A program made the translations under genes and the position numbers. From positions 21,121-85,120 of the forward strand of contig DAITNB010000001.1 of assembly GCA_036834845.1 (NCBI GenBank): a stretch of DNA of 64,000 nucleotides. Reading direction: 5' to 3'. Positions within the stretch are counted from its first letter, which is position 1. Every line of letters starts with the position of its first letter. The notes below the pieces were generated by a model that worked only from the letters and a program-made list of their open reading frames with translations, had not been told where the DNA came from and did no database searches. Positions 6,878 to 62,297 of the stretch are shown here, piece by piece. Origin of the DNA: a bacterium (lineage in GTDB: Bacteria; Bacteroidota; Ignavibacteria; Kapaibacteriales; Kapaibacteriaceae).

Positions 6878-8125
6878 TTAGAGGGGCTTGCAGGTAAGTA
6901 AAAAGAGTCGTCCGGTTACAAGTCCAAGGGCCATAAAACTTTTTGATTGTTTGTTGTAGACTGCCGGACCCATAACGTCGCACATTTTTCCGAGCCGCAG
7001 AATGTTTGTTTCAACATTCACGTAGGCCAACGTTGTTGCGCTGGGCCATGCTACGGCGGTGTTGGAATTATCAAGAAGCAACGGAACGGTTAGGTTTACG
7101 GATCCTTTTACCCAATGTCGTTTTCCATTAATACAGACAAATGGATCGCCATCTACGCCACCGTAGCAGAGAGTACCCCCGTCATTCGAAAAGGCCAAGG
7201 GTCCGGTTTGTTTCCCGGCAGGATACATTGCCCCATTGTAGAGCACCATGGGATTGCCGTTGAGAATAACCTTTGCTGCCACAAGGGCCTCAACAGGCGA
7301 AATCACTACGCCGGCTGCGTGTTCTAATGGAACACTCATCCATGGGTTATTCATTTCTGCGGAGTAACAATACACACGCTGAAAACCAGCAGCGTCCAAC
7401 GCAGCCCAGGCACACGCCGTGCCGTTGGTATTTACCATCAACTGCGATACGGCTGCCAGTGAGGGGGCTATCTCTTGCGTTCCCGCATATACCCACCAAC
7501 GCAGCCCAAACTTGCGCGCATGAACAACGGAGCCGTCCGCGAGTATGCCACCGAGCAACACGTCATCGGCGATGGCCGCTTCTCGTCCATTCACAAGTAG
7601 GGCAAACTGAGTGCCTCGAGATTCAACCCACGCCACGATGGTACCTGTTGGATCGGAACATAAACCTTGTGGTGCAGACGCACAGCGGTACGATTGTTGA
7701 AACGTTGATATGCGCATGTCTGCGCCGTTTCCATGAATCCACCATGGCGTGCTCGACATCGAAGGCAAATACGTGTCATAGAGTACGTCTCCTTCGAGGG
7801 GTATCGAGTCTTCGATTGTGCGCACCACCCATCTACCCTGCACCTTAACGGAGGCCGCAAAGTTCGAACCATCGAATGAGAACCGGGGGTTCAGTACCGA
7901 TTCGTACGGACCGTAGGCTTTACCGTCTACAATCAATCCCATGAGATCTTCAAAGGGCTGGGTAACAGCCCACCAATGACCCGTTGAATCCAGATTCATG
8001 GTGCGTACCCGCTCTACAGCGTCTAAGAGAAGCACATCCGTGCACTCTTGTGCCGCTAGGGGCATTGCCGCAGTAACGCAGCACGCACACATTGCCATGC
8101 GAATCCAGAAGCCCAAATGTTTCAT
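6878..8125 (-). CDS. Hypothetical secreted repeat protein
   Basis: 415 aa with an N-terminal signal peptide (..CVTAAMPLAAQE). It contains loosely repeated units of the form (V/I)xGKxx..(F/L)SxDG..(W)VV, e.g. IVDGKAYGPYESVLNPRFSFDGSNFAASVKVQGRWVV, LVNGREAAI..ADGSVVHARKFGLRWWVY and LAFSNDGGTLCYGGVDGDPFVCINGKRHWV. I could not name a family with confidence. Its start overlaps the upstream stop (ATGA at 8122-8125). Confidence 0.6.
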   Translation of the reverse strand: MKHLGFWIRMAMCACCVTAAMPLAAQECTDVLLLDAVERVRTMNLDSTGHWWAVTQPFEDLMGLIVDGKAYGPYESVLNPRFSFDGSNFAASVKVQGRWVVRTIEDSIPLEGDVLYDTYLPSMSSTPWWIHGNGADMRISTFQQSYRCASAPQGLCSDPTGTIVAWVESRGTQFALLVNGREAAIADDVLLGGILADGSVVHARKFGLRWWVYAGTQEIAPSLAAVSQLMVNTNGTACAWAALDAAGFQRVYCYSAEMNNPWMSVPLEHAAGVVISPVEALVAAKVILNGNPMVLYNGAMYPAGKQTGPLAFSNDGGTLCYGGVDGDPFVCINGKRHWVKGSVNLTVPLLLDNSNTAVAWPSATTLAYVNVETNILRLGKMCDVMGPAVYNKQSKSFMALGLVTGRLFLLTCKPL

Positions 8126-8712
8126 TCAACGCTCTCCAGACGTGTGTACCATCGTTCCTCGGTTGCTACTCTGTGAAGGAACACATCATGTGATTCCGGA
8201 AGCAGTAATGGTTCTCGCTGACACTCATACGCCAATCCAATGCGGAAGGCAGTACACTGAGAAAGAAACTTGTCGTAATACCCCTTACCGTACCCCAAAC
8301 GATGACAATCGTTGTTAAAGGCCACCACCGGAACTACAACAGCAGTATCCACACCAAAGAACGAAGGGTTCGTTATTACATCATCCGCCGATTGTGGCAC
8401 TGGTTCCGAAATGCCAAATGCCCCCTCTCGCCACTGCGTCTGCCACGTTACCCTGCAATGATGAAGCACACCCGTGCCAGGAGGAACAAAGGGCACATAT
8501 ACTTGCTTGCCGGTGCCCCATGCATATTCCATAAACGGCGTTGTTTCTACTTCGTGTCGCACAGACCGATAGACGTGAACGACGTTGGCCAATTGAAATG
8601 CCGATGTTTTATGTGCGCGTTCAAAAATCAACTGGTCGAACAAACTGCGATCGTCGTTGGAAATCTCTGCTCTGCGTTGGAGAAACTTTGCTCGTATGTC
8701 CGCCTTAGTCAT
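8122..8712 (-). CDS. 5-formyltetrahydrofolate cyclo-ligase (MTHFS)
   Basis: KADIRAKFLQRRAEIS.. N-terminus and the C-terminal LGYGKGYYDKFL motif of the MTHFS family. I prefer the start at MTKADIR (8712), which overlaps the EamA stop by 8 nt. The longest ORF starts at 8754. Confidence 0.85.
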   Translation of the reverse strand: MTKADIRAKFLQRRAEISNDDRSLFDQLIFERAHKTSAFQLANVVHVYRSVRHEVETTPFMEYAWGTGKQVYVPFVPPGTGVLHHCRVTWQTQWREGAFGISEPVPQSADDVITNPSFFGVDTAVVVPVVAFNNDCHRLGYGKGYYDKFLSQCTAFRIGLAYECQREPLLLPESHDVFLHRVATEERWYTRLESVE

Positions 8713-9595
8713 GGTTTTTCCGGTAGAAGACGATGTCTGGTAGAACAATTGCAATCATGAGCACCACGGCACCCACAATCTGCCTGGCCGAGAACGATTC
8801 ACTGATAAGCATCCATGCAATCACAGACGCGGCAATTGGCTCGAGTGCAAAGATTACTCCCGCTCGTACGGGATGCGTAAAACGCTGATACCGCGTTTGC
8901 ACAAACGTTGGAATAACAGTTGCAAACACACCACAGTACCCTACGGCGATGAGCAGCGATGTATCTACTTCTACGTGAAGACTCTTTTCCGCCGCAGCAT
9001 CTGCGCCAATTGCCAGTGTTGCAATGGCAAGTGTTACAAGGAACTGCAACAACACCAGGGCGTTCTGCTTACGCGGATCACTATCGCGTTCGCCGGTCCA
9101 ACGATCGATGTACGTTAGGTATACGGCCCACAAGATTGCACTTGCCAGGGTAAGCACATCTCCAATGGTAAGCGCTCCGGTTTCGGGAGACGTAAACAAC
9201 GCCAATCCAATCAACACCAAAAGAATAGACACCGCATGATCTTTTCGAAGAGATGTGCCATTAACCACCCGCTGCACAAGCGGAACAAACACCACCATGG
9301 TTCCGGTGATGAAGGCCGAAGTTGATGCAGTGGTACTTGTTAGACCCATCGTTTGAAGAAGAAATCCCATTCCAAAGAGCGAGCCAACTACGAGACCTCG
9401 CATCAACGTTTTGGCATCTATCCCCCAAAGCTGTTTGCCCCAAATGGCCAGACCAATGATGCTTGCAACGCCAAAACGGAGTACTACAAACACACTTGGT
9501 AGAACATCCGTTACCTCCGTTTTAATCACGGCAAATGTTCCGGCCCACAACACCGTGATGAGAAGGAGCAGTAGCTCTGCTGAATGACGTTTCAT
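8705..9595 (-). CDS. EamA/DMT-family transporter
   Basis: 296 aa with about 10 hydrophobic helices and an N-terminus LLLLLITVLWAGTFAVIK typical of EamA-domain proteins. Confidence 0.8.
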   Translation of the reverse strand: MKRHSAELLLLLITVLWAGTFAVIKTEVTDVLPSVFVVLRFGVASIIGLAIWGKQLWGIDAKTLMRGLVVGSLFGMGFLLQTMGLTSTTASTSAFITGTMVVFVPLVQRVVNGTSLRKDHAVSILLVLIGLALFTSPETGALTIGDVLTLASAILWAVYLTYIDRWTGERDSDPRKQNALVLLQFLVTLAIATLAIGADAAAEKSLHVEVDTSLLIAVGYCGVFATVIPTFVQTRYQRFTHPVRAGVIFALEPIAASVIAWMLISESFSARQIVGAVVLMIAIVLPDIVFYRKNHD

Positions 9596-46292: not shown

Positions 46293-48500
46293 ATGACCTT
46301 TGACCTTCGGCAGTGGCAAAAGCAGGCGTTGGATATATTGATCGAGGTTGCCGGACTAACGCAACGGCCCTCGGCCTTTAACCGAGCGCGCGCCCGCATC
46401 CTCGACATAACCGATCCACAATCCGCAACACTCGAGACCATTGCATCTGCGCTGCGGGAATTGGGTGTGGTTGCCCTCCTCCAAACAGCACCGGACGACG
46501 GAACGCCGCTAGAGTCTACCTCCACCGTGGTAATCCTCAAGGATGAATACCCCGAAAAACGTGTGCTACAAGCCGGCACCGATGCATGGCTGCACATACC
46601 AACGAACAGTAATGGAGAACGTCCGTTCGTTTTGATAATGGGAGACGTGAACTCCTTCCTCACGTCAGACGCGTCTATGCCCGAACATCGGGGTCACGAA
46701 CTACACTCACACGACCATCCGCTGGAAACAGGTTCCGGACACCACGGCCTCGGTGCCACGAAGTTGAAGGACGTGTGGCCGGCGATGAAGCGCATACTTA
46801 GGGCAGAGAAGAAGGACATCTACATTATCATCGTGTACTCCGTTTTGTCCAGCGTACTCGGTCTGGCGGTGCCCCTTAGCTCACAGGCAATTGTGAACGC
46901 CGTGGCTCTCGGAGTGTTTAGCCAGCAGTTGGTGGTGCTGTGTATCGTGGTGTTTATCGCCATGTTTGGTACGGCCGTTATTGCCGTATTCGAGCGATAC
47001 GTAATCGATATGGTGCAGAGACGAGTGTTCGTGAGTAGCGCGTTCGACATCATATACCGGCTGCCCCATTTCACTCACGCCTCTGTGCGCTCTACGTACA
47101 CACCCGAGCTTGTAAACCGGTTCTTCGATGTAATGACGATTCAGAAGTCTATCGGCAAGTTTCTCCTCGAAGGAGTAAACGCCGTTCTTGTATTGCTTGT
47201 AGGATTGTTGGTTTTGGGTATCTATCACCCATTCTTTCTCCTTTACGATATTCTCTTCATCTTCTTCATTCCGATTCTTGTTTTGGTTCTGGGCAAGGGA
47301 GCTATTGCCACTGCCGTAGAAGTATCGAAAAAGAAATACCTCACCGCTTCATGGTTAGAAGATGTGGCGCGCAACCAACTAGGAATCAAACTTGCAGACG
47401 CTACACCGTTTACATTCTCTCGCATTAACGAGATTGCCACCGGCTACGTAGAAGCGAAGCACAAACACTACATAGTGCTTGCCAGACAAATCTTCGGGTC
47501 CTTCTTATTCAAGGGTTTTGCAACAGTCGGAGTTCTTGCGCTGGGTGGAATTCTCGTTCTTGAGCAAGCAATTTCGCTTGGTCAGCTCGTTGCCGCAGAA
47601 ATTATCATCATCCTGATTCTTGGCGCAATGGAGAAGTTGATCAATCAATTCGATTTGTTTTACGACCTCGTGGCGGCTGTAGACAAACTCAGCATGATTG
47701 CCGATCAACCACTCGAAGATGTAGGGGGCGTGGCGGTTCCCCACCGGAAAGGTGGTGGAGAGGTTGCCATCCACAACGTGTCTTTTGCCTACAATCACCA
47801 TGATGTGCTTCATGGGGTTTCATTAACCGTAAAAGCCGGAGAGCGCATCAGCTTAGTGGGAGCAAGCGGCGCCGGTAAGTCCACCTTGGCCGCGCTAATT
47901 CTTGGGCTTGATGCGCCAAGTAGCGGGGCCATCGAGGTAAACGGCGTAGATACAAGAGTTGCCGATGTAAAAACGCTTCGTTCTCGTGTTGGTTATGTGT
48001 TTCCGGAAAGTCAAATATTGGCGGGAACTATACTCGACAATATCACATTGGGGCGCAGAGTAGATACGGCAACACTTAACTGGGCCCTTCAAATTGCGCG
48101 CCTTACGGAGCTTATCCGGGAGCTACCACTTGGAATCCACACAAAAATCTCGTCGAGTGGCGAGAGTATCTCCTATGGGGCGCGCAGGCGAATTCTCTTC
48201 GCACGAGCAATACTCGGAAAGCCAGAGATCCTGATAATTGATGAGGCGTTTGAAGGCATCGAGGATAGTACGAAGCTTGCGATGCTCGATGACGTAATGG
48301 CGCATTCAGATTGGACTGTAATCAACATTACCCACGACCCCGAAGTGGTGCATCGCACAAACATTGTGCACGTGCTCAACGAAGGTCACATCTGCGAAAC
48401 GGGAAGCCCGAGCGAGCTCCGTTCGCGTTCCGGTATGTTCTGCACACTCTTCCCGCACGAAGACACACGCTTCGGAAACGGAGGCACAAATGTCCGATAA
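46293..48500 (+). CDS. ABC exporter (TMD+NBD) with an N-terminal cysteine-free C39-peptidase-like domain; type I secretion / bacteriocin-exporter-like
   Basis: 735 aa. The first ~130 aa have a C39-like layout (..ALDILIEVAG..TLETIASALRELGVVA..STVVILKDEY..) but the first 170 residues contain no Cys at all. A His-rich linker follows (PEHRGHELHSHDHPLETGSGHHG), then a six-helix ABC exporter TMD and an NBD with Walker A GASGAGKST, Walker B ILIIDEA and H-loop ITHD. The signature motif reads ISYGARRR where LSGGQRQR is expected. Confidence 0.8.
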   Translation: MTFDLRQWQKQALDILIEVAGLTQRPSAFNRARARILDITDPQSATLETIASALRELGVVALLQTAPDDGTPLESTSTVVILKDEYPEKRVLQAGTDAWLHIPTNSNGERPFVLIMGDVNSFLTSDASMPEHRGHELHSHDHPLETGSGHHGLGATKLKDVWPAMKRILRAEKKDIYIIIVYSVLSSVLGLAVPLSSQAIVNAVALGVFSQQLVVLCIVVFIAMFGTAVIAVFERYVIDMVQRRVFVSSAFDIIYRLPHFTHASVRSTYTPELVNRFFDVMTIQKSIGKFLLEGVNAVLVLLVGLLVLGIYHPFFLLYDILFIFFIPILVLVLGKGAIATAVEVSKKKYLTASWLEDVARNQLGIKLADATPFTFSRINEIATGYVEAKHKHYIVLARQIFGSFLFKGFATVGVLALGGILVLEQAISLGQLVAAEIIIILILGAMEKLINQFDLFYDLVAAVDKLSMIADQPLEDVGGVAVPHRKGGGEVAIHNVSFAYNHHDVLHGVSLTVKAGERISLVGASGAGKSTLAALILGLDAPSSGAIEVNGVDTRVADVKTLRSRVGYVFPESQILAGTILDNITLGRRVDTATLNWALQIARLTELIRELPLGIHTKISSSGESISYGARRRILFARAILGKPEILIIDEAFEGIEDSTKLAMLDDVMAHSDWTVINITHDPEVVHRTNIVHVLNEGHICETGSPSELRSRSGMFCTLFPHEDTRFGNGGTNVR

Positions 48501-49764
48501 GCGCACACCACGGGTGGACTTTACAGACGTGTTGCCGCTGTACCAGCAGCGGAGTGTTTTTCGGCTTGTGTCTACAAACGGACTCCACAGACGACTAGTG
48601 GTGTTCATTGTGGCCCTAGTAGTGGCTACAGTTTTGTTCTTGGTATTTGTGCCATGGCAACAAACCGTAGTTGGAAGCGGGATTGTAACATCGTTTGCTC
48701 CCGATGCCCGACCCCAAACGGTTGAGAGTCAGATCTCGGGCAGGATTGTGCAATGGTTTGTTCGCGAAGGTGATGTGGTGCAGAAGGGCGACACTATATG
48801 TGTGCTGGCCGACATCAACGTGAACTTCATGGATACGGCATTGTTAAATCGCCTCCAAACACTTCGAGAGCGCACATTCGACGCACAAGAACGCGTTGTA
48901 GGTGTTGCTGTGCAGCGCCGAAAGCAGGCCGAGCAACGGTATCGCGCGTCGCTAGCACGATTTGAACGAAGTCTCATCGACTTAGAAATCGCTCGTACCC
49001 GATTCCGTCGCGCAGACACATTGTTCCGAGATGGTCTTATCTCTACACGAGACTTTGAATCAGCCCAAGCCGCACTTCAGGGTGCCGTTGCAGACTCCGT
49101 TACCTTTTCTACCGGGCTAACGGCAGCGCAGCAGGACATTGTGGCCTTTGTTGCCGAAGAAGAACGGGCCATGAATCAGGCCCTCGTGGCCATGCAGGAA
49201 GTAGATGTTCGCGTTGGGAATGCGCAGGGCAGGGTTGGTGCCGGCGTAGTTCTTGCGCCCATTAAGGGCACCGTTGTGCGCATTGCGAAGGCCGGCTCGG
49301 GCCAAACCGTGAAGGAAGGCGAGGAGCTTGCTCTCATCGTTCCCAAAACGTCCGATCAGGCCGTGGAGATTTACGTTGGCTCTATGGACGCTGCTCTAAT
49401 TGAACCAGGTAGATACGTGTCTCTGCAGTTTGCTGGATTCCCTGCGTTTCAGGTTAGCGGATGGCAAAATGTAAATGTGGGCATCTTTCATGGCAGAGTA
49501 AAAGTTGTTGATGCCGTAGACGATGGCACCGGACGATTCCGCGTCCTCGTTGTTCCAACAGAAGATTCCTACTACAAAGCATGGCCAAGCGACCGGTATC
49601 TGCGTCAGGGAACCGATGTATCCGGTTGGGTGCTTCTTGATGAAGTACCTATTGGTTACGAGCTTTGGCGAAGACTCATGGGCTTCCCGCCACAGTTCCC
49701 CGTAACCACCAAGGAGTCTTCCAAAGAATCGTCGAAGTCTGCCTCGAAGGACGCCAAGAAATGA
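48490..49764 (+). CDS. HlyD-family membrane fusion / periplasmic adaptor protein
   Basis: Start at MSDKRTP (48490, 11-nt overlap with the ABC gene). It has an N-terminal TM (LVVFIVALVVATVLFLVFV), a lipoyl-like hairpin (..ISGRIVQWFVREGDVVQKGDTICVL..), a long coiled-coil region and a C-terminal beta-barrel. The tail is Ser/Lys-rich. Confidence 0.85.
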   Translation: MSDKRTPRVDFTDVLPLYQQRSVFRLVSTNGLHRRLVVFIVALVVATVLFLVFVPWQQTVVGSGIVTSFAPDARPQTVESQISGRIVQWFVREGDVVQKGDTICVLADINVNFMDTALLNRLQTLRERTFDAQERVVGVAVQRRKQAEQRYRASLARFERSLIDLEIARTRFRRADTLFRDGLISTRDFESAQAALQGAVADSVTFSTGLTAAQQDIVAFVAEEERAMNQALVAMQEVDVRVGNAQGRVGAGVVLAPIKGTVVRIAKAGSGQTVKEGEELALIVPKTSDQAVEIYVGSMDAALIEPGRYVSLQFAGFPAFQVSGWQNVNVGIFHGRVKVVDAVDDGTGRFRVLVVPTEDSYYKAWPSDRYLRQGTDVSGWVLLDEVPIGYELWRRLMGFPPQFPVTTKESSKESSKSASKDAKK

Positions 49765-51140
49765 CGCACACTCTTCTTGTGCAGTTCCTTGCCCTGCTCG
49801 TTGTGTTCGTTTCCACTCTGCCTCCCACAACGGCACAGGTGTTAACGCTCGATGGGTTTCTTCTTCAGGTAGAGCGCACACACCCTTCACTTCGTTCTGC
49901 CGATTTCGAACCCGAACTCGCAGAAGCAGAGGTACGCAGTGCTCTCGGTAGGTTCGACCCCGTTCTCGATGTAACCTACGACTATAAAGACAAGGCAGGC
50001 TCGGATAAACTCAACCTGTTCGAAAGCAGCGTAGAGCTGCCACTCGATGTGTTGTTTGGTCCAAAAGTAAAAGCATCCTACAGTCGCGGTATTGGCTTTC
50101 AGATCGACCCCCAAAACCTAACCTCGCTGCCAGGTCAGGCCAGCATTGGTGTTTCGCTTCCGGTGCTGCAAGGCATTTTTACCGATGCCCGCCGAAACCA
50201 GTTACGGAAAGCACTGCTTCGACCCGACTTGGCCCTTGCGCAGTATCAGTTGGAGCGCAACAACCTTCTGCGCGCCGCCGCATTACGCTATTGGGATTGG
50301 AGTGAGGCCCAACAACTCGTGGCTGTGGCAGACAGTATCCTCGCACTCGCAGACCAGCGTCTGCAGTTCGTTGTTCGCAGAGCTCGCGCCGGCGAATCGG
50401 CCAGAATAGACAGCGTAGAAATTGCGCAAGAGGTGCAGCGGAGAATTGGCGAACGCTATCGGGCGCTGCGAATCTCCGAGCAGTCTGCCGTAGACCTTGG
50501 CGTGTTTCTTTGGAATCCCGACGGAACTCCTCGCCCCCTATCCGAGGTGCCCGAATTGCTTCCACTGAAGGCAGACACATCAGTTCGATCGCTTGACGCG
50601 GCAAACCTTGCGCGCCTGCGCAGACCAGAGGTGCGCCGGATAGACGTTATTCGACAAACATCGCGGCTCGACTCTTCATTGGCCTCCGAGCTTCTGCGTC
50701 CCTATGTTGAACTGCAGGCCGGCTTAGTTAGCTATGACGTAACGGCACCCTCTAAACTCGACTACAGCGTTGGTTTCAAAGTGCATCAACCTCTGTTGTT
50801 TCGTCAGGCAAATGCCTCCGTGCAAACTGCAGACATTGCGGTAAAGCGCGCCGACCTATCAGCAACCCTCGTTGAACGCCTTGTAGAAGCTGATGCCATA
50901 AACGCCGTTATTGCGCTCGACAGATCACGCGAGCGACTCGTTGCCGCCGACGAAGAGGTGCGTCTAGCGCGGATAATGGTAGATGCAGAACAGCGCCGTT
51001 TTCTCTCCGGCGATGCCTCGCTTTTGCAAGTAAACCTGCGCGAACGATTCTACGCCGAGGCCCTACTTCGCCAGGTGTCTGCACGCGCAGACTGGGCCCG
51101 AGCACTAATTGGTCTGAGATGGGCCACGGGAACCCTTTGA
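49761..51140 (+). CDS. TolC-family outer-membrane efflux protein
   Basis: Start at MTHTLLVQFLALLVVFVSTLPPTTAQ (signal peptide, ATGA overlap with the HlyD stop). Two repeated alpha-helical/beta-strand halves are typical of OEP/TolC proteins. Confidence 0.8.
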   Translation: MTHTLLVQFLALLVVFVSTLPPTTAQVLTLDGFLLQVERTHPSLRSADFEPELAEAEVRSALGRFDPVLDVTYDYKDKAGSDKLNLFESSVELPLDVLFGPKVKASYSRGIGFQIDPQNLTSLPGQASIGVSLPVLQGIFTDARRNQLRKALLRPDLALAQYQLERNNLLRAAALRYWDWSEAQQLVAVADSILALADQRLQFVVRRARAGESARIDSVEIAQEVQRRIGERYRALRISEQSAVDLGVFLWNPDGTPRPLSEVPELLPLKADTSVRSLDAANLARLRRPEVRRIDVIRQTSRLDSSLASELLRPYVELQAGLVSYDVTAPSKLDYSVGFKVHQPLLFRQANASVQTADIAVKRADLSATLVERLVEADAINAVIALDRSRERLVAADEEVRLARIMVDAEQRRFLSGDASLLQVNLRERFYAEALLRQVSARADWARALIGLRWATGTL

Positions 51141-51146
51141 TTCCCG

Positions 51147-51154
51147 TATCTTTG
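51147..51154 (+). promoter_or_regulatory. -7 box TATCTTTG (context CGTATCTTTG) upstream of etfB
   Basis: Perfect TAnnTTTG, 34 nt upstream of the ATG at 51189. Confidence 0.4.
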
Positions 51155-51188
51155 TGATCTTATTCCGTCAATTCAACAAGAGACAAGC

Positions 51189-51935
51189 ATGAAGATCCTC
51201 GTCTGCATCAGCCAGGTGCCGGACACTACAACGCGAGTTGCAGTAGGTACCGACGGGCGCAGCATTAACCCCGCCGGGGTGAAGTTTATTCTGAATCCAT
51301 ACGATGAATTTGCCATCGAAGAAGGCTTGCGCCTGCGTGAAAAACATGGTGGAACTGTTACCACCGTTACCGTTGGCCCAGACACGTCGAAAGAAGTTCT
51401 CCGCACCGCATTGGCAATGGGATCGGACACGGCTGTTCTCGTAAAGGACGATGCCCGTGCCGACAGCTTTGTAGTTGCCTCCGCAATCGCAGAGCTTGCC
51501 CGCGACGTCCAGCCAGACGTGGTGCTGTTTGGCAGACAGTCTATCGACTTCGATTCTTTTGTTCTTCCCTCCTTTGTGGCCGAGCTTCTTGGATGGCCAA
51601 ATGTGTCTATGGTTTCGGCACTGGAGATTGAAGGAACCGATGTTCGTGCCGAACGCGACATTGAAGGGGGCAAGGAACGAGTTTCTTCCTCGCTTCCGTG
51701 TGTGATTAGTGCACAAAAGGGATTGAACGACCCACGATATCCCAAGCTGCCAGACATTATGAAGGCCAAGTCGAAGCCTATAGAGGAACGCGCCGCCTCC
51801 GCCGCACAGCAGCGTGTAGAAACGCTTTCGATGACGCTTCCGGAAACGAAGCGCCTAAACCGCATCGTCGGTGATGCTGATACAGACATCGCCCAAATCG
51901 TACAACTCCTCCACGAAGAAGCAAAGGTGATTTAA
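51189..51935 (+). CDS. etfB: Electron transfer flavoprotein beta subunit
   Basis: MKILVCISQVPDTTTRV.. N-terminus and the overall EtfB pattern (..NPYDEFAIEEGLRL..). It is followed 1 nt later by etfA. Confidence 0.92.
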   Translation: MKILVCISQVPDTTTRVAVGTDGRSINPAGVKFILNPYDEFAIEEGLRLREKHGGTVTTVTVGPDTSKEVLRTALAMGSDTAVLVKDDARADSFVVASAIAELARDVQPDVVLFGRQSIDFDSFVLPSFVAELLGWPNVSMVSALEIEGTDVRAERDIEGGKERVSSSLPCVISAQKGLNDPRYPKLPDIMKAKSKPIEERAASAAQQRVETLSMTLPETKRLNRIVGDADTDIAQIVQLLHEEAKVI

Positions 51936-51936
51936 G

Positions 51937-52905
51937 ATGAGCATTCTTGTTTTTTGCGAGCCGGCCAATCAGGGATTTAAGCGTTCCACCTACGAGGCCA
52001 TTACGGCGGCAACATCTATCGCCAATGGTGCACCAGTTGTAGGTATCTGTTTCAACGCTTCAGACGAGCAAATTCAGTCCGCCGCTGCCTACGGTCTTCA
52101 ATCGTGCTACAATATTCAGGATGCAAGCTGGAACGAGTTCCGCAATGCCTCCGTTGCCTCGGCTATTGCTCAAGCGGCCACCGCAGCTGGTGCGCAAACT
52201 GTTCTCTTTGCTGGTAACGCCACAGGCAAGGACGTTGCACCACGCGTTGCTATTCGGCTGCAGGGCGGATTGCTCGCAGATTGTGTGGAGTTGCACGGTT
52301 CGCCGAATTCTCTCGAAGCCATCCGTCCGGTGTACGCCGGTAAGGCACTCATCCGCGTCAAGGCATCAACACCGGTAACGGTTGCCACATTACGTCCTAA
52401 CGTTTTTACACCGAAGGCCACTGCCAGCGGATCGGTTACCGTTCAGGCGTTTTCGCCCACGGTTGATTCCGCCGTTCGAAGCTCCGTAGTAACCGGCTTG
52501 CTGAAGAACGAAGGAACTCTGGACGTTGCCGAGGCAGACATCATTGTCTCCGGTGGTAGGGGGCTTAAGGGTCCCGAGAACTTCCATCTCATCGAGTCGC
52601 TCGCCCGTTCATTAGGAGCAGCCGTTGGCGCCTCTCGCGCAGTTGTAGATGCCGGTTGGAGACCTCACCGCGAGCAAGTAGGCCAAACCGGCAAAACGGT
52701 AAGTCCAACCATGTACGTTGCCTGCGGCATCAGCGGTGCCGTTCAGCATCTTGCCGGCATGTCTTCGAGCAAGATTATTGTTGCCATCAACAAAGACAAA
52801 GACGCGCCAATATTCAAGGTTGCAGACTACGGTATTGTTGGAGACGTGTTTGAAGTATTGCCTCGCCTCACAGAGAAAATTTCAACGGTAACGGGACGTA
52901 GCTAA
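51937..52905 (+). CDS. etfA: Electron transfer flavoprotein alpha subunit
   Basis: C-terminal FAD-binding block ..IIVSGGRGL..GASRAVVDAGW..QVGQTGKTVSPTMYVACGISGAVQHLAGM..IVAINKDKDAPIF.. Confidence 0.93.
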   Translation: MSILVFCEPANQGFKRSTYEAITAATSIANGAPVVGICFNASDEQIQSAAAYGLQSCYNIQDASWNEFRNASVASAIAQAATAAGAQTVLFAGNATGKDVAPRVAIRLQGGLLADCVELHGSPNSLEAIRPVYAGKALIRVKASTPVTVATLRPNVFTPKATASGSVTVQAFSPTVDSAVRSSVVTGLLKNEGTLDVAEADIIVSGGRGLKGPENFHLIESLARSLGAAVGASRAVVDAGWRPHREQVGQTGKTVSPTMYVACGISGAVQHLAGMSSSKIIVAINKDKDAPIFKVADYGIVGDVFEVLPRLTEKISTVTGRS

Positions 52906-52915
52906 CGCCAACGCC

Positions 52916-53545
52916 ATGAACAAGATTCAGGTAGACATACTCGGATTGTCCATCAACCCGAATTCACAGCGTGCCTATGCTCTCCTACTCAAAGAGCTGG
53001 ATGGTCCGCGTAGACTACCGATTGTTATTGGTGAACCCGAAGCACAGGCAATTGCCAACGAACTCGAGGGTGTACGTCCGCAGCGTCCGATGACACACGA
53101 TCTGCTGAAAACCGTGGTGGAAGTTCTGGGTGCAACCGTAAAGGAGATCACCATTACAAGCATTAAGGACGGCACATTCTACGCCACCATCGTGTTTGAA
53201 TATTCGGACCTCGAAGTAGACGCCCGTCCAAGCGACGCAATTGCGCTTGCCGTGCGGTGCGGTGCTCCTATGTACGTGGCAGAGTCCATCATGGACGAGG
53301 TTGCCATGCAAGAAGAAGATTTAACCGATCTGGACGCGGATGCATCACCGGAAACGGCAGAGGAAGACGAAGACAACGAGATTCAACGTCTGCAACAATC
53401 TGTGCAACAGGAAGGCGTAGACCAGCCCCTTACCTTCCGCCAGCAGTTGGAGCAAGAACTCGATCAGGCAATTCGCGTGGAAGACTACGAAGCTGCTGCA
53501 CGCATTCGCGACGAGTTGCAGAGACTGGGAAGCGATCAACAGTAA
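52916..53545 (+). CDS. Bifunctional nuclease (DUF151/BFN) family protein with C-terminal UVR motif
   Basis: ..LPIVIGEPEAQAIANEL..RPMTHDLL..VTITSIKDGTFYA..DARPSDAIALAVR..P(I/M)YV.. is the BFN domain. The C-terminal LEQELDQAIRVEDYEAAARIRDEL is a UvrB/UvrC-type UVR helix. Confidence 0.8.
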   Translation: MNKIQVDILGLSINPNSQRAYALLLKELDGPRRLPIVIGEPEAQAIANELEGVRPQRPMTHDLLKTVVEVLGATVKEITITSIKDGTFYATIVFEYSDLEVDARPSDAIALAVRCGAPMYVAESIMDEVAMQEEDLTDLDADASPETAEEDEDNEIQRLQQSVQQEGVDQPLTFRQQLEQELDQAIRVEDYEAAARIRDELQRLGSDQQ

Positions 53546-53585: not shown

Positions 53586-53659
53586 GCCGGAGTAGCTCAG
53601 GTGGTTAGAGCAACGGAATCATAATCCGTGTGTCGGGGGTTCAAGTCCCTCCTCCGGTA
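53586..53659 (+). tRNA. tRNA with CAT anticodon (elongator tRNA-Met; tRNA-Ile2 cannot be excluded)
   Basis: Hand-folded cloverleaf. The acceptor stem is GCCGGAG/CTCCGGT (one G-U pair). The D-arm is TAGCTCAGGTGGTTAGAGCA. The anticodon stem ACGGA/TCCGT carries loop ATCATAA. The T-arm is GGGGG-TTCAAGT-CCCTC. The discriminator base is A, and no CCA is encoded. It lacks initiator features (no C1:A72 mismatch, no GGG/CCC anticodon stem). Confidence 0.88.
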
Positions 53660-53686
53660 CTTTACACTGTACGATAACCTAGTTAG

Positions 53687-54217
53687 CTATTCGTGTTTCA
53701 ATAGTTTTAACGCGGCTCTCTCTGCGGGGAGTCGCACAAACCAGAGCATTGCGCCATTTACAACCGTACCTATCAGCGCAGTTACTGGAGCGCCCACCAA
53801 GAGTGGCACGCTGATAAATTCCAGCATAACTGCCACGTAGTTTGGATGGGGCAAAAACGTGTACGGACCTCGCCGCACCAACACTGAACCCGGAACAACG
53901 ATGATCCGCGTGTTCCATGCATCGCCTAGTGAGGAAATAGACCAGTACCGGAGAAACTGTGCTGCAACAAAAACGCTCGCCCAAAGTGTCCACAGGGGTT
54001 GCAATTCCACTGTTGAATGGTTGGAGGACCGCATAATCGATTCGGCATTGAAGGCAATAAACCACGCCGCATGCAGCACAACAACAAACGGGTAGTGTGA
54101 GGCGCCAAACTCTACGCCGCCACGTTCAAAGGCTCGTTTTGCGTTTCTCCGAGCAAGTACAAGTTCGCTCGCGCGTTGGAGCACAAGTACCACCGTTACC
54201 AATTCTAACACAAGCAT
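53687..54217 (-). CDS. ICMT/PEMT-type membrane methyltransferase (BpsB/SrsB-like)
   Basis: 176 aa, multi-TM, with ..VRRGPYTFLPHPNYVAVMLEFISVPLL.., the isoprenylcysteine carboxyl methyltransferase family motif. It lies directly downstream of a type III PKS. Confidence 0.75.
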   Translation of the reverse strand: MLVLELVTVVLVLQRASELVLARRNAKRAFERGGVEFGASHYPFVVVLHAAWFIAFNAESIMRSSNHSTVELQPLWTLWASVFVAAQFLRYWSISSLGDAWNTRIIVVPGSVLVRRGPYTFLPHPNYVAVMLEFISVPLLVGAPVTALIGTVVNGAMLWFVRLPAERAALKLLKHE

Positions 54218-54238
54218 GGGACGAAGATACGGTGCGAA

Positions 54239-55285
54239 CTACGGTTGAAACAGAAGAACCTGTTCTGCAGAAAATCCGGGTCCTAGTGCCGCCATCAAAC
54301 TGTATCCCGACCTTTTGGTTCGTTGCTGGCTCTGGAGCCACCGTTCCAATACGAATAGCACCGAGGCACTGGACATATTGCCAAACTCTTGCAGCACGCT
54401 CCGAGCAATAGAAAATGCCGGCGGCGTTCGGCCTAGCGCCGCAGCATAGGCATCAAGAACCTTCGAACCGCCGGGGTGCGCTATCACATCGGCAATGTTC
54501 TGCAGATCAATCCCCCATTCCGCACAGGCATTGGTTAGGATAGAAGGAATGTTCTCCCGCACAAAGGCAGGAATGTCTCGGGAAAATCTCACCTTTAGTC
54601 CATCATCCGAAACATCCCACCCCATTATGTCTTCGGTGGACGGAAAGAGTGTGCTGTAGCTATTGTGTACAACCGGACCCGTTCCGTTCCACGAAAGAAG
54701 CACGGCTGCTGCCCCATCGCCGAAGATAGAACTCCCAACGATGTTCGACTTCGAGAAATCGTTCTTCTGGAAGGTAGTACTACATACCTCCACGGCAACG
54801 AAGAGAACTGGATGTCCGTTAAGAGCAGCACATACTTCTGCTGCACGAGCAAGCCCACTCACTCCTGCCGCACACCCAAGGCCAAACACGGGTAAACGTT
54901 TACATGTAGACCGCAGATGTAATGTCTGCATCAATGCTGCATCAAGAGAGGGCGTCATAATGCCGGTAGTGCTGGCCACAACAATTGCCTCTACCTGCGC
55001 GCTGCTTCTATCAAGGGCCTTCTGTGCTGCCTCTGTTGCGAGAAGAACCGCTTGTTCTGAATAGACAGAATTTCGATAGGCAAACGAATGATCCTCTGCG
55101 TACCACTCCGGTGGCATCACAAAACGTCGGGTGCGAACGTGTTCATGTTCGAACACTCGCAACACATGCGCTAAAGACAACTCATGTCTGCCGAGTAGTT
55201 GCTCGATAATACTTCGCACCTGATGTTGATGCACAACGTGCGGTGGCACCGCGGTGCCAATACCGGCTATCCGAACGTTGTTCAT
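54239..55285 (-). CDS. Type III polyketide synthase (chalcone-synthase superfamily)
   Basis: Start at [16 protein letters not shown] (55285, ATGA overlap with the upstream stop). The catalytic triad contexts are in the expected order: [13 protein letters not shown] (Cys), [12 protein letters not shown] (His), [14 protein letters not shown] (Asn). Confidence 0.85.
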
Positions 55286-56079
55286 AAGGTGGGTTCCGCA
55301 TCGGGCTCGGGGATTGCACACGTATTGCGAAACGCTAACTGAGAGAGTCGCTTACGATGGTCGCTTCGCCAGTCTATTCTTGGCCTCTGTGTGTTTGGTG
55401 GCAGGTATCCCAAGCGATACACAGCCATAAGTTCAAGTTCATCCGGCACCTGAAGAATTTTCTTCAGGTCGTCCCACGCCCCAGGAATCTCCATTGGTGT
55501 AGAGATAAACTGAATTCCCATTCCCAATGTGCCCGTTAACAACCAAATGTGTTCAATGGCCATACCAAGGGATAGTGTGCAGTAGTACCCGGAAAGTTCG
55601 CCGGGACGGTATTCTTCCTTCGTAAGCAAGGCCGCAAGCAAAAGTGGACTGCCCTCTATAAGCTTACGGTTGTCTTCTCCTAACAACCTGGCTACACCTA
55701 GCTTCGATAGCACGTTCATTACGTTGTCTGTAAACACCTGCTTGATAAACGGACGCAATGCGAGGGGCATTTGATCGATGAGGATACCATCTCGACGCTC
55801 TTCCATCTCTTCCTGCGAAAAACGAAAGTACTTGCGGTAGCGCGTAAAGAAGGAGCCCCCTTCAATGAGCTGCGTCATTGTTCTGCCGCCAATCTCGGCA
55901 ATACGCCGGCGGATCTCGGGGTCGTCTATGAGGATAAACCTCCAGGGTTGAGAGTTAAAGTGACTTGGTGCCCGTTCAGCGGCTTCAATCAACATCCGCT
56001 GATGTTCAATGCTTACCGGACGATTTTCGAAGTGTCCATTTGTTGTCTTCCGCGTTCTGATAGCATCACGCAGGTTCAT
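55282..56079 (-). CDS. Nitroreductase-fold flavoprotein
   Basis: ..[48 protein letters not shown].. is the nitroreductase-family N-terminal pattern. ATGA overlaps occur at both ends (56076-56079 and 55282-55285). Confidence 0.7.
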
Positions 56080-57836
56080 ACATGCCTTTCATAAAGTCCG
56101 TCTATGATATCGGAATAGGCCGCCAACACTGCTTTTCGTTTTACCTTCAGTGTTGGAGTTAACATTCCGTTGTCGATTGTAAATGGCTCCGGCAGAATTG
56201 CGAAACGCCGAACACGTTCGTATTTGGCAAGATCTCGCTGAAGCACGTTGATGTCTGCTTCGATCAGTTTGTGCAAATCGGCAGAGGGATCCTTCGCCAA
56301 CAGTTCCTTCACTACCTCTGCCTGCGGCACAACGAGTGCCGTGCAATACTCACGCGCGTCTCCTACAAGCATTATTTGGTCGATGAGGGGGCTTTGCAGC
56401 AACAATTGTTCAATCGGCTGTGGTGCTATGTTTTTACCGCCGCTCGATACAAGAAGGTGTTTCTTCCGGTCGGTGATCCGCAAATGCCCATTGCTGTCTA
56501 TCTCGCCAATGTCGCCCGTGTGCAGCCAACCGTCTGGAGTTAACACTTCCTTCGTTGCCACATCATTCTTCCAGTACCCTTTCATGATGCTGGGTCCGCG
56601 CACAAGGATTTCGCCATCATCAGCAATACGCACCATTACATTGTCCAGCGGAGGTCCAACCGTTCCAAGAACAATATCGTTAAGACTGTGCACGGCAATC
56701 ACCGGAGACGTTTCTGTAAGTCCATAACCTTCTACAATCCGAATTCCAACAATGCGGAAGAACCGTCCCAATTCGGCCCCGAGTGCTGCTCCGCCCGATA
56801 CGAAGAACCGCAACCGACCGCCCATTCGTTCCCTGATTTTGCTAAAAACCAACCTGTCGGCTAAGGATCGCTGCAAGCGCACGAGCGGACTCGTGTGCCC
56901 CCTATCAAACTCGTCCCCCACGGCCATGGCCCAATGGAAAATCCGTTGTTTACGTGGCGAATCTCGTTCAACAGAACCAAGAATCCGTGCGCGTATTCGC
57001 TCGAACAACCGCGGCACAGACGTCATGATAGTTGGACGCACCTCGCGCATACGTTCGGCTACACTGTCTATAGACTCGGCAATGTATACGCTGGCGCCGG
57101 CAAAAAATGCAAGGTAGTATCCAGACATGCGCTCGTAGCTGTGGCAAAGGGGCAGGTACGATACAAACACATCGGTATCTGTAACGGAAATTCTCTTCAA
57201 TCCCGCCTCGATGTTCGCTACCAGGTTTCCGTGTGTAAGCATCACACCCTTGGGCTCGCCGGTGGTTCCGCTGGTATAGATAATTGTAAGCACGTCTGCG
57301 GCGTGAACACGCTCTGCCATCTGTTCGAGTTTATCGTGTTGTTGCTCCAACGATGTATGGGTGCGCTCAATCTCTATCAGGTTGTCGAGATGTACAACAC
57401 GCCTGTCTTCTATATCAATGGCCTCGATAGTAACAACGAACTGCAGAGACGGCAGCTCTGGCCAAATCTCGAGGATCTTCTTCAGCTGAAACGCGTTCGA
57501 TACAACAACGGCGGCGGCACCGGAGTCTTCAAAGATGTACTGGAGCTGTGGTGCAGTAAGTGTTGGAAACACGGGTACGTCTACAAGTCCTGCGCAGGTG
57601 GCTGCGTAGTTGCATATGGCCCACTCCGTTCGGTTTTCGCTTACAATACCTATTCGATCGCCTGGTACCAATCCCATTCGCAACAAACCAAGGGCTACAC
57701 CGGCAACACTGTCCAACAGCTGATCATGCGTGTGGTAAACCCACTCGCCCCCTTTTCGTTGTGCGTATGCAACCTTGTTGGATACACCCGCAAAGCGGCG
57801 GCACGTAGAGAGAAACATTTGCGGAATTGTAGACAT
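56076..57836 (-). CDS. Long-chain fatty acid--CoA ligase (AMP-forming, FadD-like)
   Basis: 586 aa. AMP-binding motif [21 protein letters not shown], plus ..GYGLTETSP.. and ..[31 protein letters not shown]... Confidence 0.88.
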
Positions 57837-57865: not shown

Positions 57866-59830
57866 TCAGTCGAAGAACGACCAATCAACGCTTAGGCGAA
57901 TAGATCGGGCTATCTCGGGTGCTAAGGCAGTAGTGTACCAACGCTGACCAAGAATATTCTCGAAACTAGCGCGTACGGTTGCGTTACCTACTATGGCAAC
58001 AAGAAATGCGTTCAGTCCATCGTACTGCACCCCGGTGCTTGTAAGGGGTGATGCATAGGTCCAAGACGGTGCCACAAATTGCTGAAACATCGCCGAGGTA
58101 AGGGTAGAACCCGAAACACCAAGTCGGACGGAATTTTTCCCAACCTCATACACAAATGCTACACGCAGCGAAGCCATCACCAAGGGAAAACGTTCATCGC
58201 TTTGCGAATCGGACATTGATGAATGCAGCCGCACGGTTGGACCAATTTCGATGGGACCCGTTCGCCACAATGCGCTGGCCACCGCACCCGCAATAAGCCG
58301 ACTGCTACCATTGGCAAATGCTGCCAGCGGAATGGTTTCTGTTTCCTGCCGAACCACGGACGCCACAATGGGACTCTCAATACGCCTGCCGAAAACAGTT
58401 ACCGATGCCTGTAGCTGAGAAACGTTCCAATTACCGGCAAGCGATACAACAAAGTGTCGCTCTGGAGTGAGGGAAAACCCTTCGTTCGGTGTGGGTGCAC
58501 GTTCTATGGTTGCTGCGTCAAATGTATACCGAGACGCTCCACCACCATACACAAGTCCAACGCCGGCGCCACTGAGAAGTTGTTGTTGCTCATAGGCAAA
58601 TCGGGCCGCCACCTTGGCCGTGAGTTCCTCGGAAAATGGTATCCGAAGATGGGCAAATGCCTGAGGAAGTACATTGGTTTGCGCTGCGGTGTACACACTT
58701 TGACCTGTGGTGCGGTACTCCGCACCAACGCCTACTCGTAGTCGTAACGTACCCAGTTGTTGGTCTAACCGGGCAATGCCCCCTACCATACCGCCATGAA
58801 TAGTTACGCCTCGGCCTGTGTCTGCAAGTGAGGTATAGAGTGTAGAGTCTCGCAACCGCAGGAGCGAAGCAGCAGTACCGTAGGCAACAGTGCTGAGTAC
58901 GGACGACGAATCGTCACCAAGGATCTGTGTGAAGGTAGCGGTAAGGTCGTGCCTGCGCGACTCGTCGCGCAGTTCAACGTTCACAACTGGTGCGGCATCT
59001 TCGGTGAAGCGCGAATCGAGTGCAATGGTTCGCAAACCACCCCAGAGATCTGTATTGTGCGAGGCAAGCTGGTACTCCACGAGCAGGTGCTGTTGCGCAC
59101 TCATCGTCCAGCGAATGCCTGCACGAACATTCCAGATATCGAAGCCGGTGTTCACGTAGCGTCCGCGTGCTCCACTTCTGCGAACACCAACACTGAGGTT
59201 CAGGTTTTCGGCCACGTTCTGCGAAAACGTTGCGTCTGCACCAATGATATCGCCGCCACCCTGATGATACCACAAGGCGGTATATGGCGTAGCGGTATTG
59301 TGGATCATGGACTGCATGTTTACCGCCGAGAGCGTCATCCCGGGCGCCAACCCCACAGCATCTGTACCGGTGAGAACTTCTACGCGTTCAAGAGCGGCCG
59401 GCTGTGCCTGTACCAATTGGAACATGCCAGACCAGGGGTCGGACAACGGCCTTCCATCGATACTCACTCCAAGATCAACGTTTGCACCGCCAAGCACGCT
59501 AATGGCATCATGCTGTCCGAAGCCCCCATGGGAAAGGGGCATCCAGGGCGTAGATAGTGCAAGCGCATCTGCAAGCTGCGAATACGCCAAAGTGCGCATC
59601 GTGCGTTTTGTGATCTCGTTGCTAAGCTCTGTGCTGTCTATAGAAAGTCTGCCAAGATGTTTCCACGATGCAAGCAGCGAGTCTGGCCTAATTATCGTGC
59701 GCTGGGTAAACGCGGTATCGCGCGCCGGCGGGAGGTTCGACGGCGGCGTTTGCTGTTGAGCAAACATGGCGATCGGCGCAAGCGCGCCGATCGCCAGGAT
59801 TTTAGCTTTCCGTGGTAGTGTTCTCAGCAC
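57866..59830 (-). CDS. TonB-dependent-receptor-like outer-membrane beta-barrel protein
   Basis: Plug-like segment ..[39 protein letters not shown].., then about 500 aa of alternating beta-strand pattern. I prefer the GTG start at 59830, giving (M)[25 protein letters not shown] (signal peptide). The longest ORF (59908) overlaps gyrA by 107 nt; the GTG start still overlaps it by 29 nt. Confidence 0.55.
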
Positions 59831-62297
59831 CGGTAAGGTCCACCGTGTCCTCAGAAGATTCTTCGTCTTCTTCCCGAGTAACCGTTGTGATATCGGCAAT
59901 TTGATCACCCTCTTCGAGGCGAATCAACCGCACACCTTGGGTGTTACGCCCAAGCTGACGTATATCCTTTACCGGCTGACGTATGAGGATGCCGTTGGTG
60001 GTGATTACAACAAGGTCCTCGGTATCGTGCACTTCGAGGATAGCACAAATTGGACCCGTCTTCTCGGTCTGGTTCATCGCGATTACACCCTTTGCACCGC
60101 GCTTCGTCATGCGGAACTCGTCTACAACGGTGCGTTTACCAACACCACGCGATCCAACCACTACAATTTGTGCATCGCTTCTGCGAACGGCCGTAAGGGA
60201 GATAACATGGTTGCCTTCTACAAGGGAAATACCCTTTACACCAGCCGCCGTTCTACCCATTGACCGAACGTCGGATTCCGGGAATCGCACTGCAAGTCCG
60301 TTCGAGGCGCCGATAAGAATCTCCATCTTACCATCGGTGAGGCGCGCGCCAATGAGACGGTCTTCCTCATCGAGATTTACGGCAATGATGCCGTTCGAGC
60401 GCACGTTGGCAAAGTCCTTAAGAGACGTCTTCTTTACGGTGCCAAACTTGGTTGCCATAAAGATGTAGAGGTCATCACGGTCGAAGTCTGTAACGCTAAG
60501 GTATGCAGTTACTTTTTCGTCTTGCTGCTTGTGAATTACGTTCGCAATAGACCTGCCTTTGGCGTTGCGCGACCCTTCGGGGATATCGTAGACTTTCTGA
60601 CGGTATACTCTTCCACGATCGGTGAAGAACAGGAGATAGTGGTGCGTAGATGCACGGAAGACTACCTCTACCCAATCGTCATCGTACGTTCCTGCGCCGG
60701 CAACACCTCTGCCTCCCCGGTGCTGCCTGCGATAGGTGGCAACTGGAGTGCGCTTAATGAAGCCGTTGTGCGAGATAGACACAATCACCTCTTCGTTGGC
60801 AATCATGTCTTCGAGCGTAAAGTCTTTTGCGTCGTATACAACCTGCGTGCGACGCTCATCGCCATGTTTCGCGGCAAGATCGAGGAGCTCTTGCCCAATG
60901 ATCTGCATCTGGAGTTCCTTACTTGCAAGGATGGCGCGTAGACGCTCGATGGTTTCGATGATTTCGCGGTATTCAGCCTGGATTTTTTCGCGCTCAAGTC
61001 CGGTAAGACGTTGCAGGCGCATGTCGAGGATTGCCTTGGCCTGTATCTCCGACAAGCTGAACCGTTTTTGCAAACGCTCCGAAGCTTGCTGGGCGTCTTT
61101 CGACTCCTTAATGGTCTTAATCACTTCGTCGATATTGTCGAGCGCAATGATAAAACCTTCCAAGATGTGTGCACGCTTTTCGGCAGCATCTAGGTCGAAC
61201 TGGGTACGCCGGACAACAACTTCTACACGATGCTTAAGGAACTCTTCGATGAGTTCCTTCAGTGTAAGGATTCGCGGACGTCCATTTACAAGCGCCAGCA
61301 TAATTACGCCGAACGTAACCTGCATTTGTGTGTGCTTGTACAGGTTGTTGAGCACAACCATTGGAACACCATCGCGCTTGAGTTCAATAACGATGCGCAT
61401 TCCTTCGCGGTCAGACTCGTCCCGAATGTCGCTGATGTCTTCGAGTGATTTCGCTTTTACAAGGTCTGCAATCTTTTCGATCAACCCGGCCTTACTTACT
61501 TGGTACGGAAGCTCTGTAATAACAATTGCTTCCCTACCCTGCTTGTTTGTTTCAATGCTTGCCTTGGCACGAACGAGGATCTTCCCTCTTCCCGTTGTAT
61601 AGGCATTCCGAACACCTTCGTATCCATAGATGATGCCACCGGTTGGAAAGTCGGGTGCCGAAACGTACTTGAGAAGCTCTTCGTTGGTAATCGAGGGGTC
61701 TGCGATAACAGCAGAAATACCGTTAACTATCTCACGAAGGTTATGCGGAGGAATGTTTGTTGCCATACCAACGGCAATGCCGTTGGCGCCGTTAACGAGT
61801 AATGTTGGCAGAACGGACGGCAGTACCGTTGGCTCTTGGAGAGAATCATCGAAGTTCGAACGAAACTCAACGGTATTCTTGTCCAAATCGCGCAGTACTT
61901 CGAGTGCAAGATTGTCCATCCTTGCTTCGGTGTACCTCATGGCTGCCGGCGAGTCGCCGTCTACCGATCCAAAGTTGCCTTGTCCGTCTATCAATGGATA
62001 CCGCATCGACCAGGTTTGTGCCAGGCGAACCATTGCGTCGTACACGGCGGAGTCGCCATGGGGGTGGTATTTACCCAGCACCTCGCCCACGATACGGGCA
62101 GATTTCTTGTAGGGTCTGTTGGGCATCATGCCCAATTCGTACATAGCGTAAAGAATACGCCTATGAACAGGTTTTAGACCGTCTCGCACGTCCGGAAGGG
62201 CGCGCGAGACGATAACGGACATTGAATAATCGAGATACGAATCCCGCATCTCGTCCTCCATTAGGACGGGCAGGATTTTTTCGTTGTATAAGGCCAT
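59802..62297 (-). CDS. gyrA: DNA gyrase subunit A
   Basis: ..[57 protein letters not shown].. (active-site Tyr region ..AMRYTEARM..). It has C-terminal beta-pinwheel repeats and an acidic tail. Confidence 0.97.

Follow-up and report, generated by a model that had tools for sequence, protein, structure and literature searches.

Does a type III polyketide synthase (PKS) encoded between a nitroreductase-fold protein and a membrane methyltransferase belong to a biosynthetic unit, and if so, which of the genes around it take part? The question is raised by a stretch of 64,000 nucleotides (hereafter the window, by which we mean the whole of the DNA analysed) from a member of the Kapaibacteriaceae (Bacteroidota, Ignavibacteria; assembly GCA_036834845.1, contig DAITNB010000001.1, positions 21,121 to 85,120), in which four genes on the minus strand run from 57836 down to 53687. 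In this order they encode a long-chain fatty-acid-CoA ligase (586 aa, 56076-57836), a putative flavoprotein of the nitroreductase fold (NTR, 265 aa, 55282-56079), the type III PKS (348 aa from its ATG, 54239-55285) and an integral-membrane methyltransferase of the ICMT family that resembles BpsB, SrsB and DquB (176 aa, 53687-54217). A sequence-only reading had taken all four genes for a single cassette in which a dedicated ligase feeds the PKS. We find that the core is probably a three-gene cassette of about 2.4 kb, beginning with NTR and continuing through the PKS to the methyltransferase, which would make a membrane phenolic lipid; NTR would perform a redox step, and the ligase is not specific to the cassette.

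Conservation of the gene trio

The NTR family alignment was scanned against one genome per species, which returned relatives in 417 genomes, and the best 80 loci were examined by comparing the window proteins with the fetched loci by tblastn. Of the 73 loci with enough flanking sequence, 71 have a type III PKS gene directly downstream of NTR and in the same orientation; an ICMT gene follows the PKS, within 5 kb, in 57 of 66. By their record titles, the NTR loci include members of Kapaibacterium and Ignavibacteria, Anaerolineae and Chloroflexota, Meiothermus and Calidithermus, Nannocystaceae and other Myxococcota, and Leptospiraceae. The order and strand of the trio are constant across at least five phyla, while the neighbours outside the cassette are wholly different between phyla, and because the same order is kept while the other neighbours differ, NTR, PKS and ICMT form a conserved unit. 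The pairwise identities of NTR and of the PKS across loci are also correlated (Spearman 0.64), which is consistent with co-inheritance of the two genes. The sequence-only reading had proposed to test whether the four genes occur together in relatives, and they do so for the trio but not for the ligase, which is directly upstream of NTR in 32 of 70 loci, all of them in the Kapabacteria clade. The same reading had suggested that NTR would be a tailoring or redox step not present in the described systems; NTR is indeed an accessory component that those systems lack, and its linkage to the PKS has turned out to be tighter than was supposed.

Lipids made by type III PKSs and methyltransferases have been implicated in several roles at the membrane: as alternative respiratory quinones in mycobacteria and Streptomyces, as the cyst lipids of Azotobacter, and as parts of the cell envelope that make bacteria tolerant to antibiotics. 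Here a third gene of a different fold, very strongly conserved, stands beside the PKS in hundreds of species that belong to unrelated phyla, and its attachment suggests that the chemistry of the head group, and probably the lipid itself, is so far uncharacterised. A function for the cassette would give a role to an orphan branch of the nitroreductase superfamily. We found no description of the NTR-PKS-ICMT trio in the full-text literature searched (MIBiG and antiSMASH were not covered), in line with the earlier suspicion that the composition had not been characterised. Cultured carriers include Meiothermus taiwanensis, M. hypogaeus, M. rufus, Calidithermus chliarophilus, C. roseus, Plesiocystis pacifica SIR-1 and Nannocystaceae strain ST9, and since the cassette is small and present in culturable strains, its function is directly testable.

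Within the window, the arrangement of the genes was read directly from the sequence, and the strand, the coordinates and the spacing given by the sequence-only reading are all borne out. ATGA stop/start overlaps join the ligase to NTR (56079-56076) and NTR to the PKS (55285-55282), and the spacer between the PKS and ICMT genes is 21 nt. A GTG-extended form of the PKS, 360 aa in length, is also possible, and its extension falls within the upstream gene. A scan for promoter and terminator consensus inside the operon gave no signal above the shuffled expectation. Each of the four proteins has hundreds to thousands of homologues, with best E-values among non-identical relatives of 1e-140 to 1e-269, and the open reading frames (ORFs) are therefore real genes rather than chance ORFs. 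All four Pfam domain assignments exceed their gathering scores. The near-identical homologues carry the source names of metagenome-assembled genomes (MAGs) of Kapabacteria and Ignavibacteria, which agrees with the placement of the relatives in the FCB group.

The polyketide synthase and the methyltransferase

Its domains and catalytic residues identify the 348-aa protein as a true type III PKS, one that belongs by type with the long-chain alkylpyrone/alkylresorcinol synthases. The Pfam domains Chal_sti_synt_N and Chal_sti_synt_C score 77 and 81 bits (cutoff 27), and homologues are named "alkylresorcinol/alkylpyrone synthase" or "BpsA" by their sources. The best solved relative is Pks11 of Mycobacterium tuberculosis (PDB 4jao, 8e-56, residues 6-345), followed among the PDB matches by a Streptomyces type III PKS (1u0m), THNS, CylI, PKS18 and plant chalcone synthases. 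The motifs noted before, GLGCAAG (residues 135-141), AHPGG (269-273) and GNMSSAS (302-308), were confirmed, and the Cys138, His270 and Asn303 that they contain are invariant in 59 homologues. These three residues align with the triad of Pks11, and the hydrophobic-tunnel residues align as well. The genomic context of Pks11 is not known to include an ICMT gene or a nitroreductase gene. The mean pairwise identity of the PKS across loci is 50%.

Residues F188 and W223 of the window PKS are invariant and are the counterparts of F191 and W226 in DquA, positions whose counterparts have been reported for long-chain acyl binding in Pks11 (PMC9827899). Lys275 corresponds to K278 of DquA, the position used by a rule in which Ala, as opposed to Lys or Arg, separates CoA-linked starters from those carried on acyl carrier protein (ACP). 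[quoted passage not shown] The rule based on W281 of ArsB and G284 of ArsC, which separates pyrone from resorcinol formation, failed for DquA (PMC9827899) and is therefore unreliable.

The last gene of the cassette encodes a protein that matches the ICMT family (PF04140) with 81 bits against a cutoff of 24 and that has the RGPYTFLPHPNY motif at residues 116-127. In 59 homologues G117, H124, P125, N126 and Y127 are invariant, and the motif GPYxxxxHPNY is conserved. A Kyte-Doolittle scan, which is a crude method, finds four hydrophobic segments of 19 residues in this protein and none in the other three, so that the description of the last ORF as a multi-spanning membrane protein with an ICMT-family motif is upheld. 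The sole PDB match is the ICMT structure 4a2n. The score against the NCBIfam model for protein-S-isoprenylcysteine O-methyltransferase (NF040696) is 34 bits, far under its cutoff of 160, and judged by these matches the protein is a member of the family but not the prenylcysteine enzyme. Its mean pairwise identity across loci is 53%.

The nitroreductase-fold protein

The NTR protein matches Pfam PF00881 with 68 bits (cutoff 23.5) and falls below every curated NCBIfam cutoff (Acg 55 vs 199, BluB 52 vs 150, NfsB-type 27 vs 227, FbiB-C 24 vs 250, RutE-type 26 vs 152). The AF2 model of NTR (pLDDT 73.6, pTM 0.72) was compared with the PDB by Foldseek, which returned 149 chains at E <= 0.001; those listed, 50 in number, all belong to the nitroreductase superfamily and are headed by uncharacterised structural-genomics proteins and followed by iodotyrosine deiodinase (IYD), BluB and the C-terminal domain of FbiB (FbiB-C) at 14-24% identity. 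Searches of the PDB by sequence and by fold thus returned generic nitroreductase-fold relatives only and gave no functional assignment. FbiB-C is an ene-reductase, and IYD acts on phenols. NTR shares with BluB, IYD and FbiB-C the fold and the N-terminal APSxxNSQPW region, a hallmark of the superfamily, but its scores lie far under the family thresholds, and no functional residues could be carried over from them. Within the phosphate-binding N-terminal motif, R10 and T12 are invariant; the C-terminal RPRIDW region is modelled with low confidence.

The NTR family is compact and distinct from general nitroreductases: a search of 1.84 billion representatives yields only 24 clusters (50% identity) for it at E < 1e-30. 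A scan with a paralogue of NTR of 38% identity (P0253) gave three usable loci, in which the neighbours are acetyl-CoA synthetase, NAD(P)HX repair and Fic genes and no PKS is present; these loci are uninformative.

A proposed pathway and its relation to known systems

By homology, the PKS would start from the thioester of a long-chain fatty acid and lengthen it with malonyl or methylmalonyl units, giving an alkyl-alpha-pyrone or an alkylresorcinol head group. By analogy with BpsB, SrsB and DquB, the ICMT-family enzyme would then O-methylate this head group in the membrane. NTR may act as a soluble, probably FMN-dependent partner of the PKS that carries out one two-electron redox step directly on the PKS product or on a late intermediate. 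We favour action of NTR on the pyrone or resorcinol ring itself, because the cassette encodes no hydroxylase that would make a quinone first.

The pairing of the PKS with the methyltransferase, for which BpsA/BpsB had been named as the model, is supported by the comparison with two systems. In BpsA/BpsB of Bacillus subtilis and DquA/DquB of Sporomusaceae, a PKS and an ICMT-like methyltransferase form a module that yields long-chain alkylpyrones or alkylresorcinols, and BpsB carries out the O-methylation of the BpsA products (PMC9827899). The window likewise has the PKS followed by an ICMT-family membrane methyltransferase, but unlike these two-gene systems, which have no redox enzyme, it has NTR in front of the PKS, overlapping the PKS start, and this arrangement is kept across phyla. 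A second group of systems, srsABC, pkqABC, hidABC and the planctomycetal Mtr-Fdo-T3PKS operons, each adds an FAD-dependent oxidoreductase (PMC10896814; PMC9927152). SrsABC of Streptomyces griseus, PkqABC of Mycobacterium smegmatis and Streptomyces sp. MNU77, HidABC of cyanobacteria and the planctomycetal operons thus resemble the window cassette in combining a type III PKS, a methyltransferase and one oxidoreductase, and their products are alkylresorcinol-derived lipids or quinones. In contrast to their FAD-dependent oxidoreductase (in S. griseus described as a hydroxylase), the window has an unrelated enzyme of the nitroreductase fold, and the gene order also differs, being NTR, PKS and methyltransferase in the window. 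NTR would fill the slot that the FAD-dependent oxidoreductase occupies in those operons; across the 80 loci, the surroundings of the cassette show no conserved family of FAD monooxygenases, and none is present in the window operon. On this evidence we regard the finding as a phenolic-lipid locus of the BpsA/BpsB type whose redox partner is new and tightly coupled to it.

The reaction of NTR can be proposed with less assurance than its membership of the cassette. Reduction of an ene or keto tautomer of the pyrone or resorcinol, the default chemistry of the fold, is a tentative suggestion that falls somewhat short of an even chance. That NTR performs an O2-dependent hydroxylation or a dehydrogenation, substituting for SrsC-type enzymes, seems to us rather doubtful. 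A further and equally speculative proposal, which we would not expect to hold, is that a widespread clade of type III PKSs has NTR as its obligate partner and that NTR performs a head-group transformation that is new for phenolic lipids or for the fold; with the small His-rich membrane protein found beside the cassette in most phyla, it would give more than 400 species of at least five phyla a membrane lipid of a new class. The candidate reactions under that proposal are a flavin-dependent reduction or dearomatisation of the alkylresorcinol or alkylpyrone, and an O2-dependent hydroxylation by NTR as a single component, in place of the SrsC-type FAD monooxygenases.

Several observations weigh against a three-gene cassette with NTR as its redox enzyme. 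PKS-ICMT pairs that have no NTR occur in a Desulfocapsaceae MAG (L087) and in L088, with PKSs 52-53% identical to that of the window, and in a rough neighbour-joining tree these pairs nest among the NTR-linked PKSs of the Kapabacteria type; it follows that gain or loss of NTR has taken place and that the basic pair can do without it. In turn, some NTR genes, few in number, stand alone with no neighbouring PKS (L004-6, L042, L058). No characterised nitroreductase subfamily is matched by NTR above threshold, so that any type of reaction assigned to it is a proposal. The binding of FMN, which is predicted from motifs, is plausible, but Asn14 stands where the canonical RxSxR motif has its third basic residue. 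Finally, NTR has the highest mean pairwise identity of the trio (70%, against 50-53% for its partners), and the proposed pathway gives no explanation of this strong conservation.

The ligase and alternative explanations

The ligase is the gene on which our reading departs from the sequence-only one, which had made it a dedicated component. Its Pfam matches (AMP-binding 275 bits, AMP-binding_C_3 54 bits), its best NCBIfam model (FadD11, below the cutoff of that model) and the source names of its homologues (long-chain acyl-CoA synthetase) agree in placing it, in terms of domains, among the generic ligases that join long-chain fatty acids to CoA, of the FadD11/AMP-binding_C_3 type. A four-gene cassette, with the ligase as a pathway-specific enzyme that activates the starter in the manner of the fatty acyl-AMP ligase of Myxococcus ftp, would account for the ATGA overlap of the ligase stop with the NTR start, for the order ligase-NTR-PKS-ICMT in the 32 Kapabacteria-clade loci (ligase identity 54-68%), and for the use of long-chain acyl thioester starters by such type III PKSs (PMC9827899). 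The whole Kapabacteria neighbourhood is syntenic, however, with gyrA, the porin gene, the ligase and the cassette followed on the other strand by genes for a bifunctional-nuclease-domain protein (BFN) and the electron-transfer flavoprotein (ETF), and because of this the adjacency of the ligase alone is weak evidence. Cassettes of Meiothermus, Calidithermus, Nannocystaceae, Anaerolineae and Leptospiraceae have no ligase, and in L043 the porin gene is followed directly by NTR-PKS-ICMT, the ligase being missing. Orthologous ligases with 51-52% identity occur, moreover, in the gyrA-porin-ligase arrangement of related genomes, where tblastn found no NTR, PKS or ICMT: in L102 the order is gyrA-porin-ligase and then unrelated genes, and in L101 it is porin-TPR-ligase-ComEC. 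Since this arrangement persists in relatives that lack the trio, the ligase is not dedicated to the cassette, and we have rejected that role for it; a four-gene cassette is accordingly unlikely. These arrangements are explained most simply if gyrA, the porin gene and the ligase are an older block behind which the three-gene cassette stands. The overlap makes co-transcription of the ligase with the cassette likely in Kapabacteria, and this housekeeping-type enzyme may raise the local supply of acyl-CoA starters there, while the other phyla run the cassette without it. The Ftp cluster of Myxococcus xanthus, reportedly described by Hayashi et al. in 2011, is said to combine a type III PKS with a fatty acyl-AMP ligase and an ACP. 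Unlike the ligase of that cluster, the window ligase is of the CoA-ligase type and not specific to the cassette, and it has no ACP gene nearby.

The remaining alternatives concern NTR and the identity of the PKS. Two-electron reduction of quinones is the commonest activity of the nitroreductase superfamily, and NTR might be an NAD(P)H:quinone reductase that keeps an alkylquinone/hydroquinone lipid reduced, in an antioxidant or electron-carrier cycle, rather than a tailoring enzyme. Operons of a type III PKS, a methyltransferase and an oxidoreductase do yield respiratory polyketide quinones, known in mycobacteria and Streptomyces (PMC9927152), and the best NCBIfam match of NTR, a weak one, is to the Acg family. 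Neither the cassette nor its conserved neighbours include a hydroxylase, however, so that an unlinked gene would be needed to turn the resorcinol into a quinone, and the tightest linkage of NTR is to the PKS and not to any respiratory gene; we consider this role distinctly improbable, more so than that of a four-gene cassette. If NTR were a general detoxifying nitroreductase that happened to lie beside a BpsA/BpsB-like pair, the NTR genes that have no PKS and the PKS-ICMT pairs that have no NTR would be expected, but not the same strand and order in 71 of 73 species-level genomes of at least five phyla whose other neighbours are wholly different, nor a compact family distinct from the general nitroreductases. 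Chance adjacency is effectively refuted by this co-occurrence and has, in our judgement, hardly any probability left. Even less credit can be given to the idea that the 348-aa protein is an initiating ketosynthase of fatty-acid synthesis of the FabH/KAS III type. It does have weak secondary Pfam matches to FabH-type models (ACP_syn_III 25 bits, ACP_syn_III_C 34 bits), but the chalcone/stilbene-synthase domains score higher, the FabH model of NCBIfam reaches 71 bits against a cutoff of 249, and no FabH is found among the top 60 PDB matches, all of those listed being type III PKSs or chalcone/stilbene synthases. The domain scores and PDB matches refute a FabH identity, as the sequence-only reading had anticipated in calling the protein a PKS.

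Neighbouring genes and variants of the cassette

Downstream, the operon is bounded by a tRNA-Met gene (CAT anticodon, 53586-53660, plus strand, found by ARAGORN), which is convergent with the ICMT gene and lies 26 nt past its stop on the opposite strand. Upstream, an outer-membrane protein gene (57866-59908, minus strand; Pfam Plug 35 bits, Porin_10 28 bits), which we regard as context only, is separated from the ligase start by 29 nt and has gyrA upstream of it. The synteny block of gyrA, the Plug/Porin_10 gene and the ligase (window 57866-62297) is kept in Kapabacteria and Ignavibacteria with or without the PKS cassette. A GC-rich hairpin of 13 bp followed by a T-rich tail is found at 59767-59796 (minus strand), just past the gyrA stop (59802). 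The porin ORF as listed starts with a GTG at 59908 and overlaps gyrA by 107 nt, and the hairpin lies inside its N-terminal part, where it encodes a hydrophobic stretch; the true start of the porin is therefore uncertain. In one Kapabacteria subclade, a bacterial PH-domain (bPH_2) protein is encoded between the porin and the ligase (L027 7226-7771; L029; L031; L089 2892-3422).

On the strand opposite to the cassette, the window carries genes for an ABC transporter with a long N-terminal extension, an HlyD-like adaptor and a TolC-like outer-membrane factor (46293-51140), followed by the ETF beta and alpha subunits (51189-52905) and a BFN-UVR bifunctional-nuclease-domain protein (52916-53545). 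The genes of window 46293-53545 are syntenic with the cassette in Kapabacteria only.

Among the NTR genes that stand alone, those of L004-6 and L042 are 70-72% identical to the window NTR (in L004 the gene is at 8001-8786). In L004-6, NTR is followed by a protein of 339-387 aa with no Pfam match and by a TPR protein, and the protein set of these loci carries a ligase homologue (P0510) in an unrelated context (L100).

A small hydrophobic protein of about 80-95 aa ("f12") is encoded in 39 loci that have no ligase (for example L059 5704-5985; L046 9708-9971; L001 7736-7975), and the ligase and the small protein are mutually exclusive in the loci examined. The protein is His-rich, with the motifs HFGxWHHxLY and P[KR]xRPxTWxHP, and has no Pfam match. 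Its gene lies directly upstream of NTR or, in four Ignavibacteria-type loci, after ICMT, and its hosts are some Ignavibacteria together with Meiothermus, Calidithermus, Nannocystaceae, Anaerolineae and Leptospiraceae. A tblastn search of the window gave no match to it better than E = 0.09.

Two further variants concern the cassette itself. Some Ignavibacteria-type loci have a membrane protein of about 150 aa between NTR and the PKS (L044 10824-11381; L069 10792-11244; L041 5191-5769), with weak matches to DUF3995 and CAAD that are below threshold. In two Chloroflexota loci, one from Candidatus Trichofilum aggregatum and one from an Anaerolineae MAG, NTR and the PKS are followed by an AidB-like acyl-CoA dehydrogenase of 588 aa in the usual place of ICMT (L080 12031-13797; L081 11849-13618).

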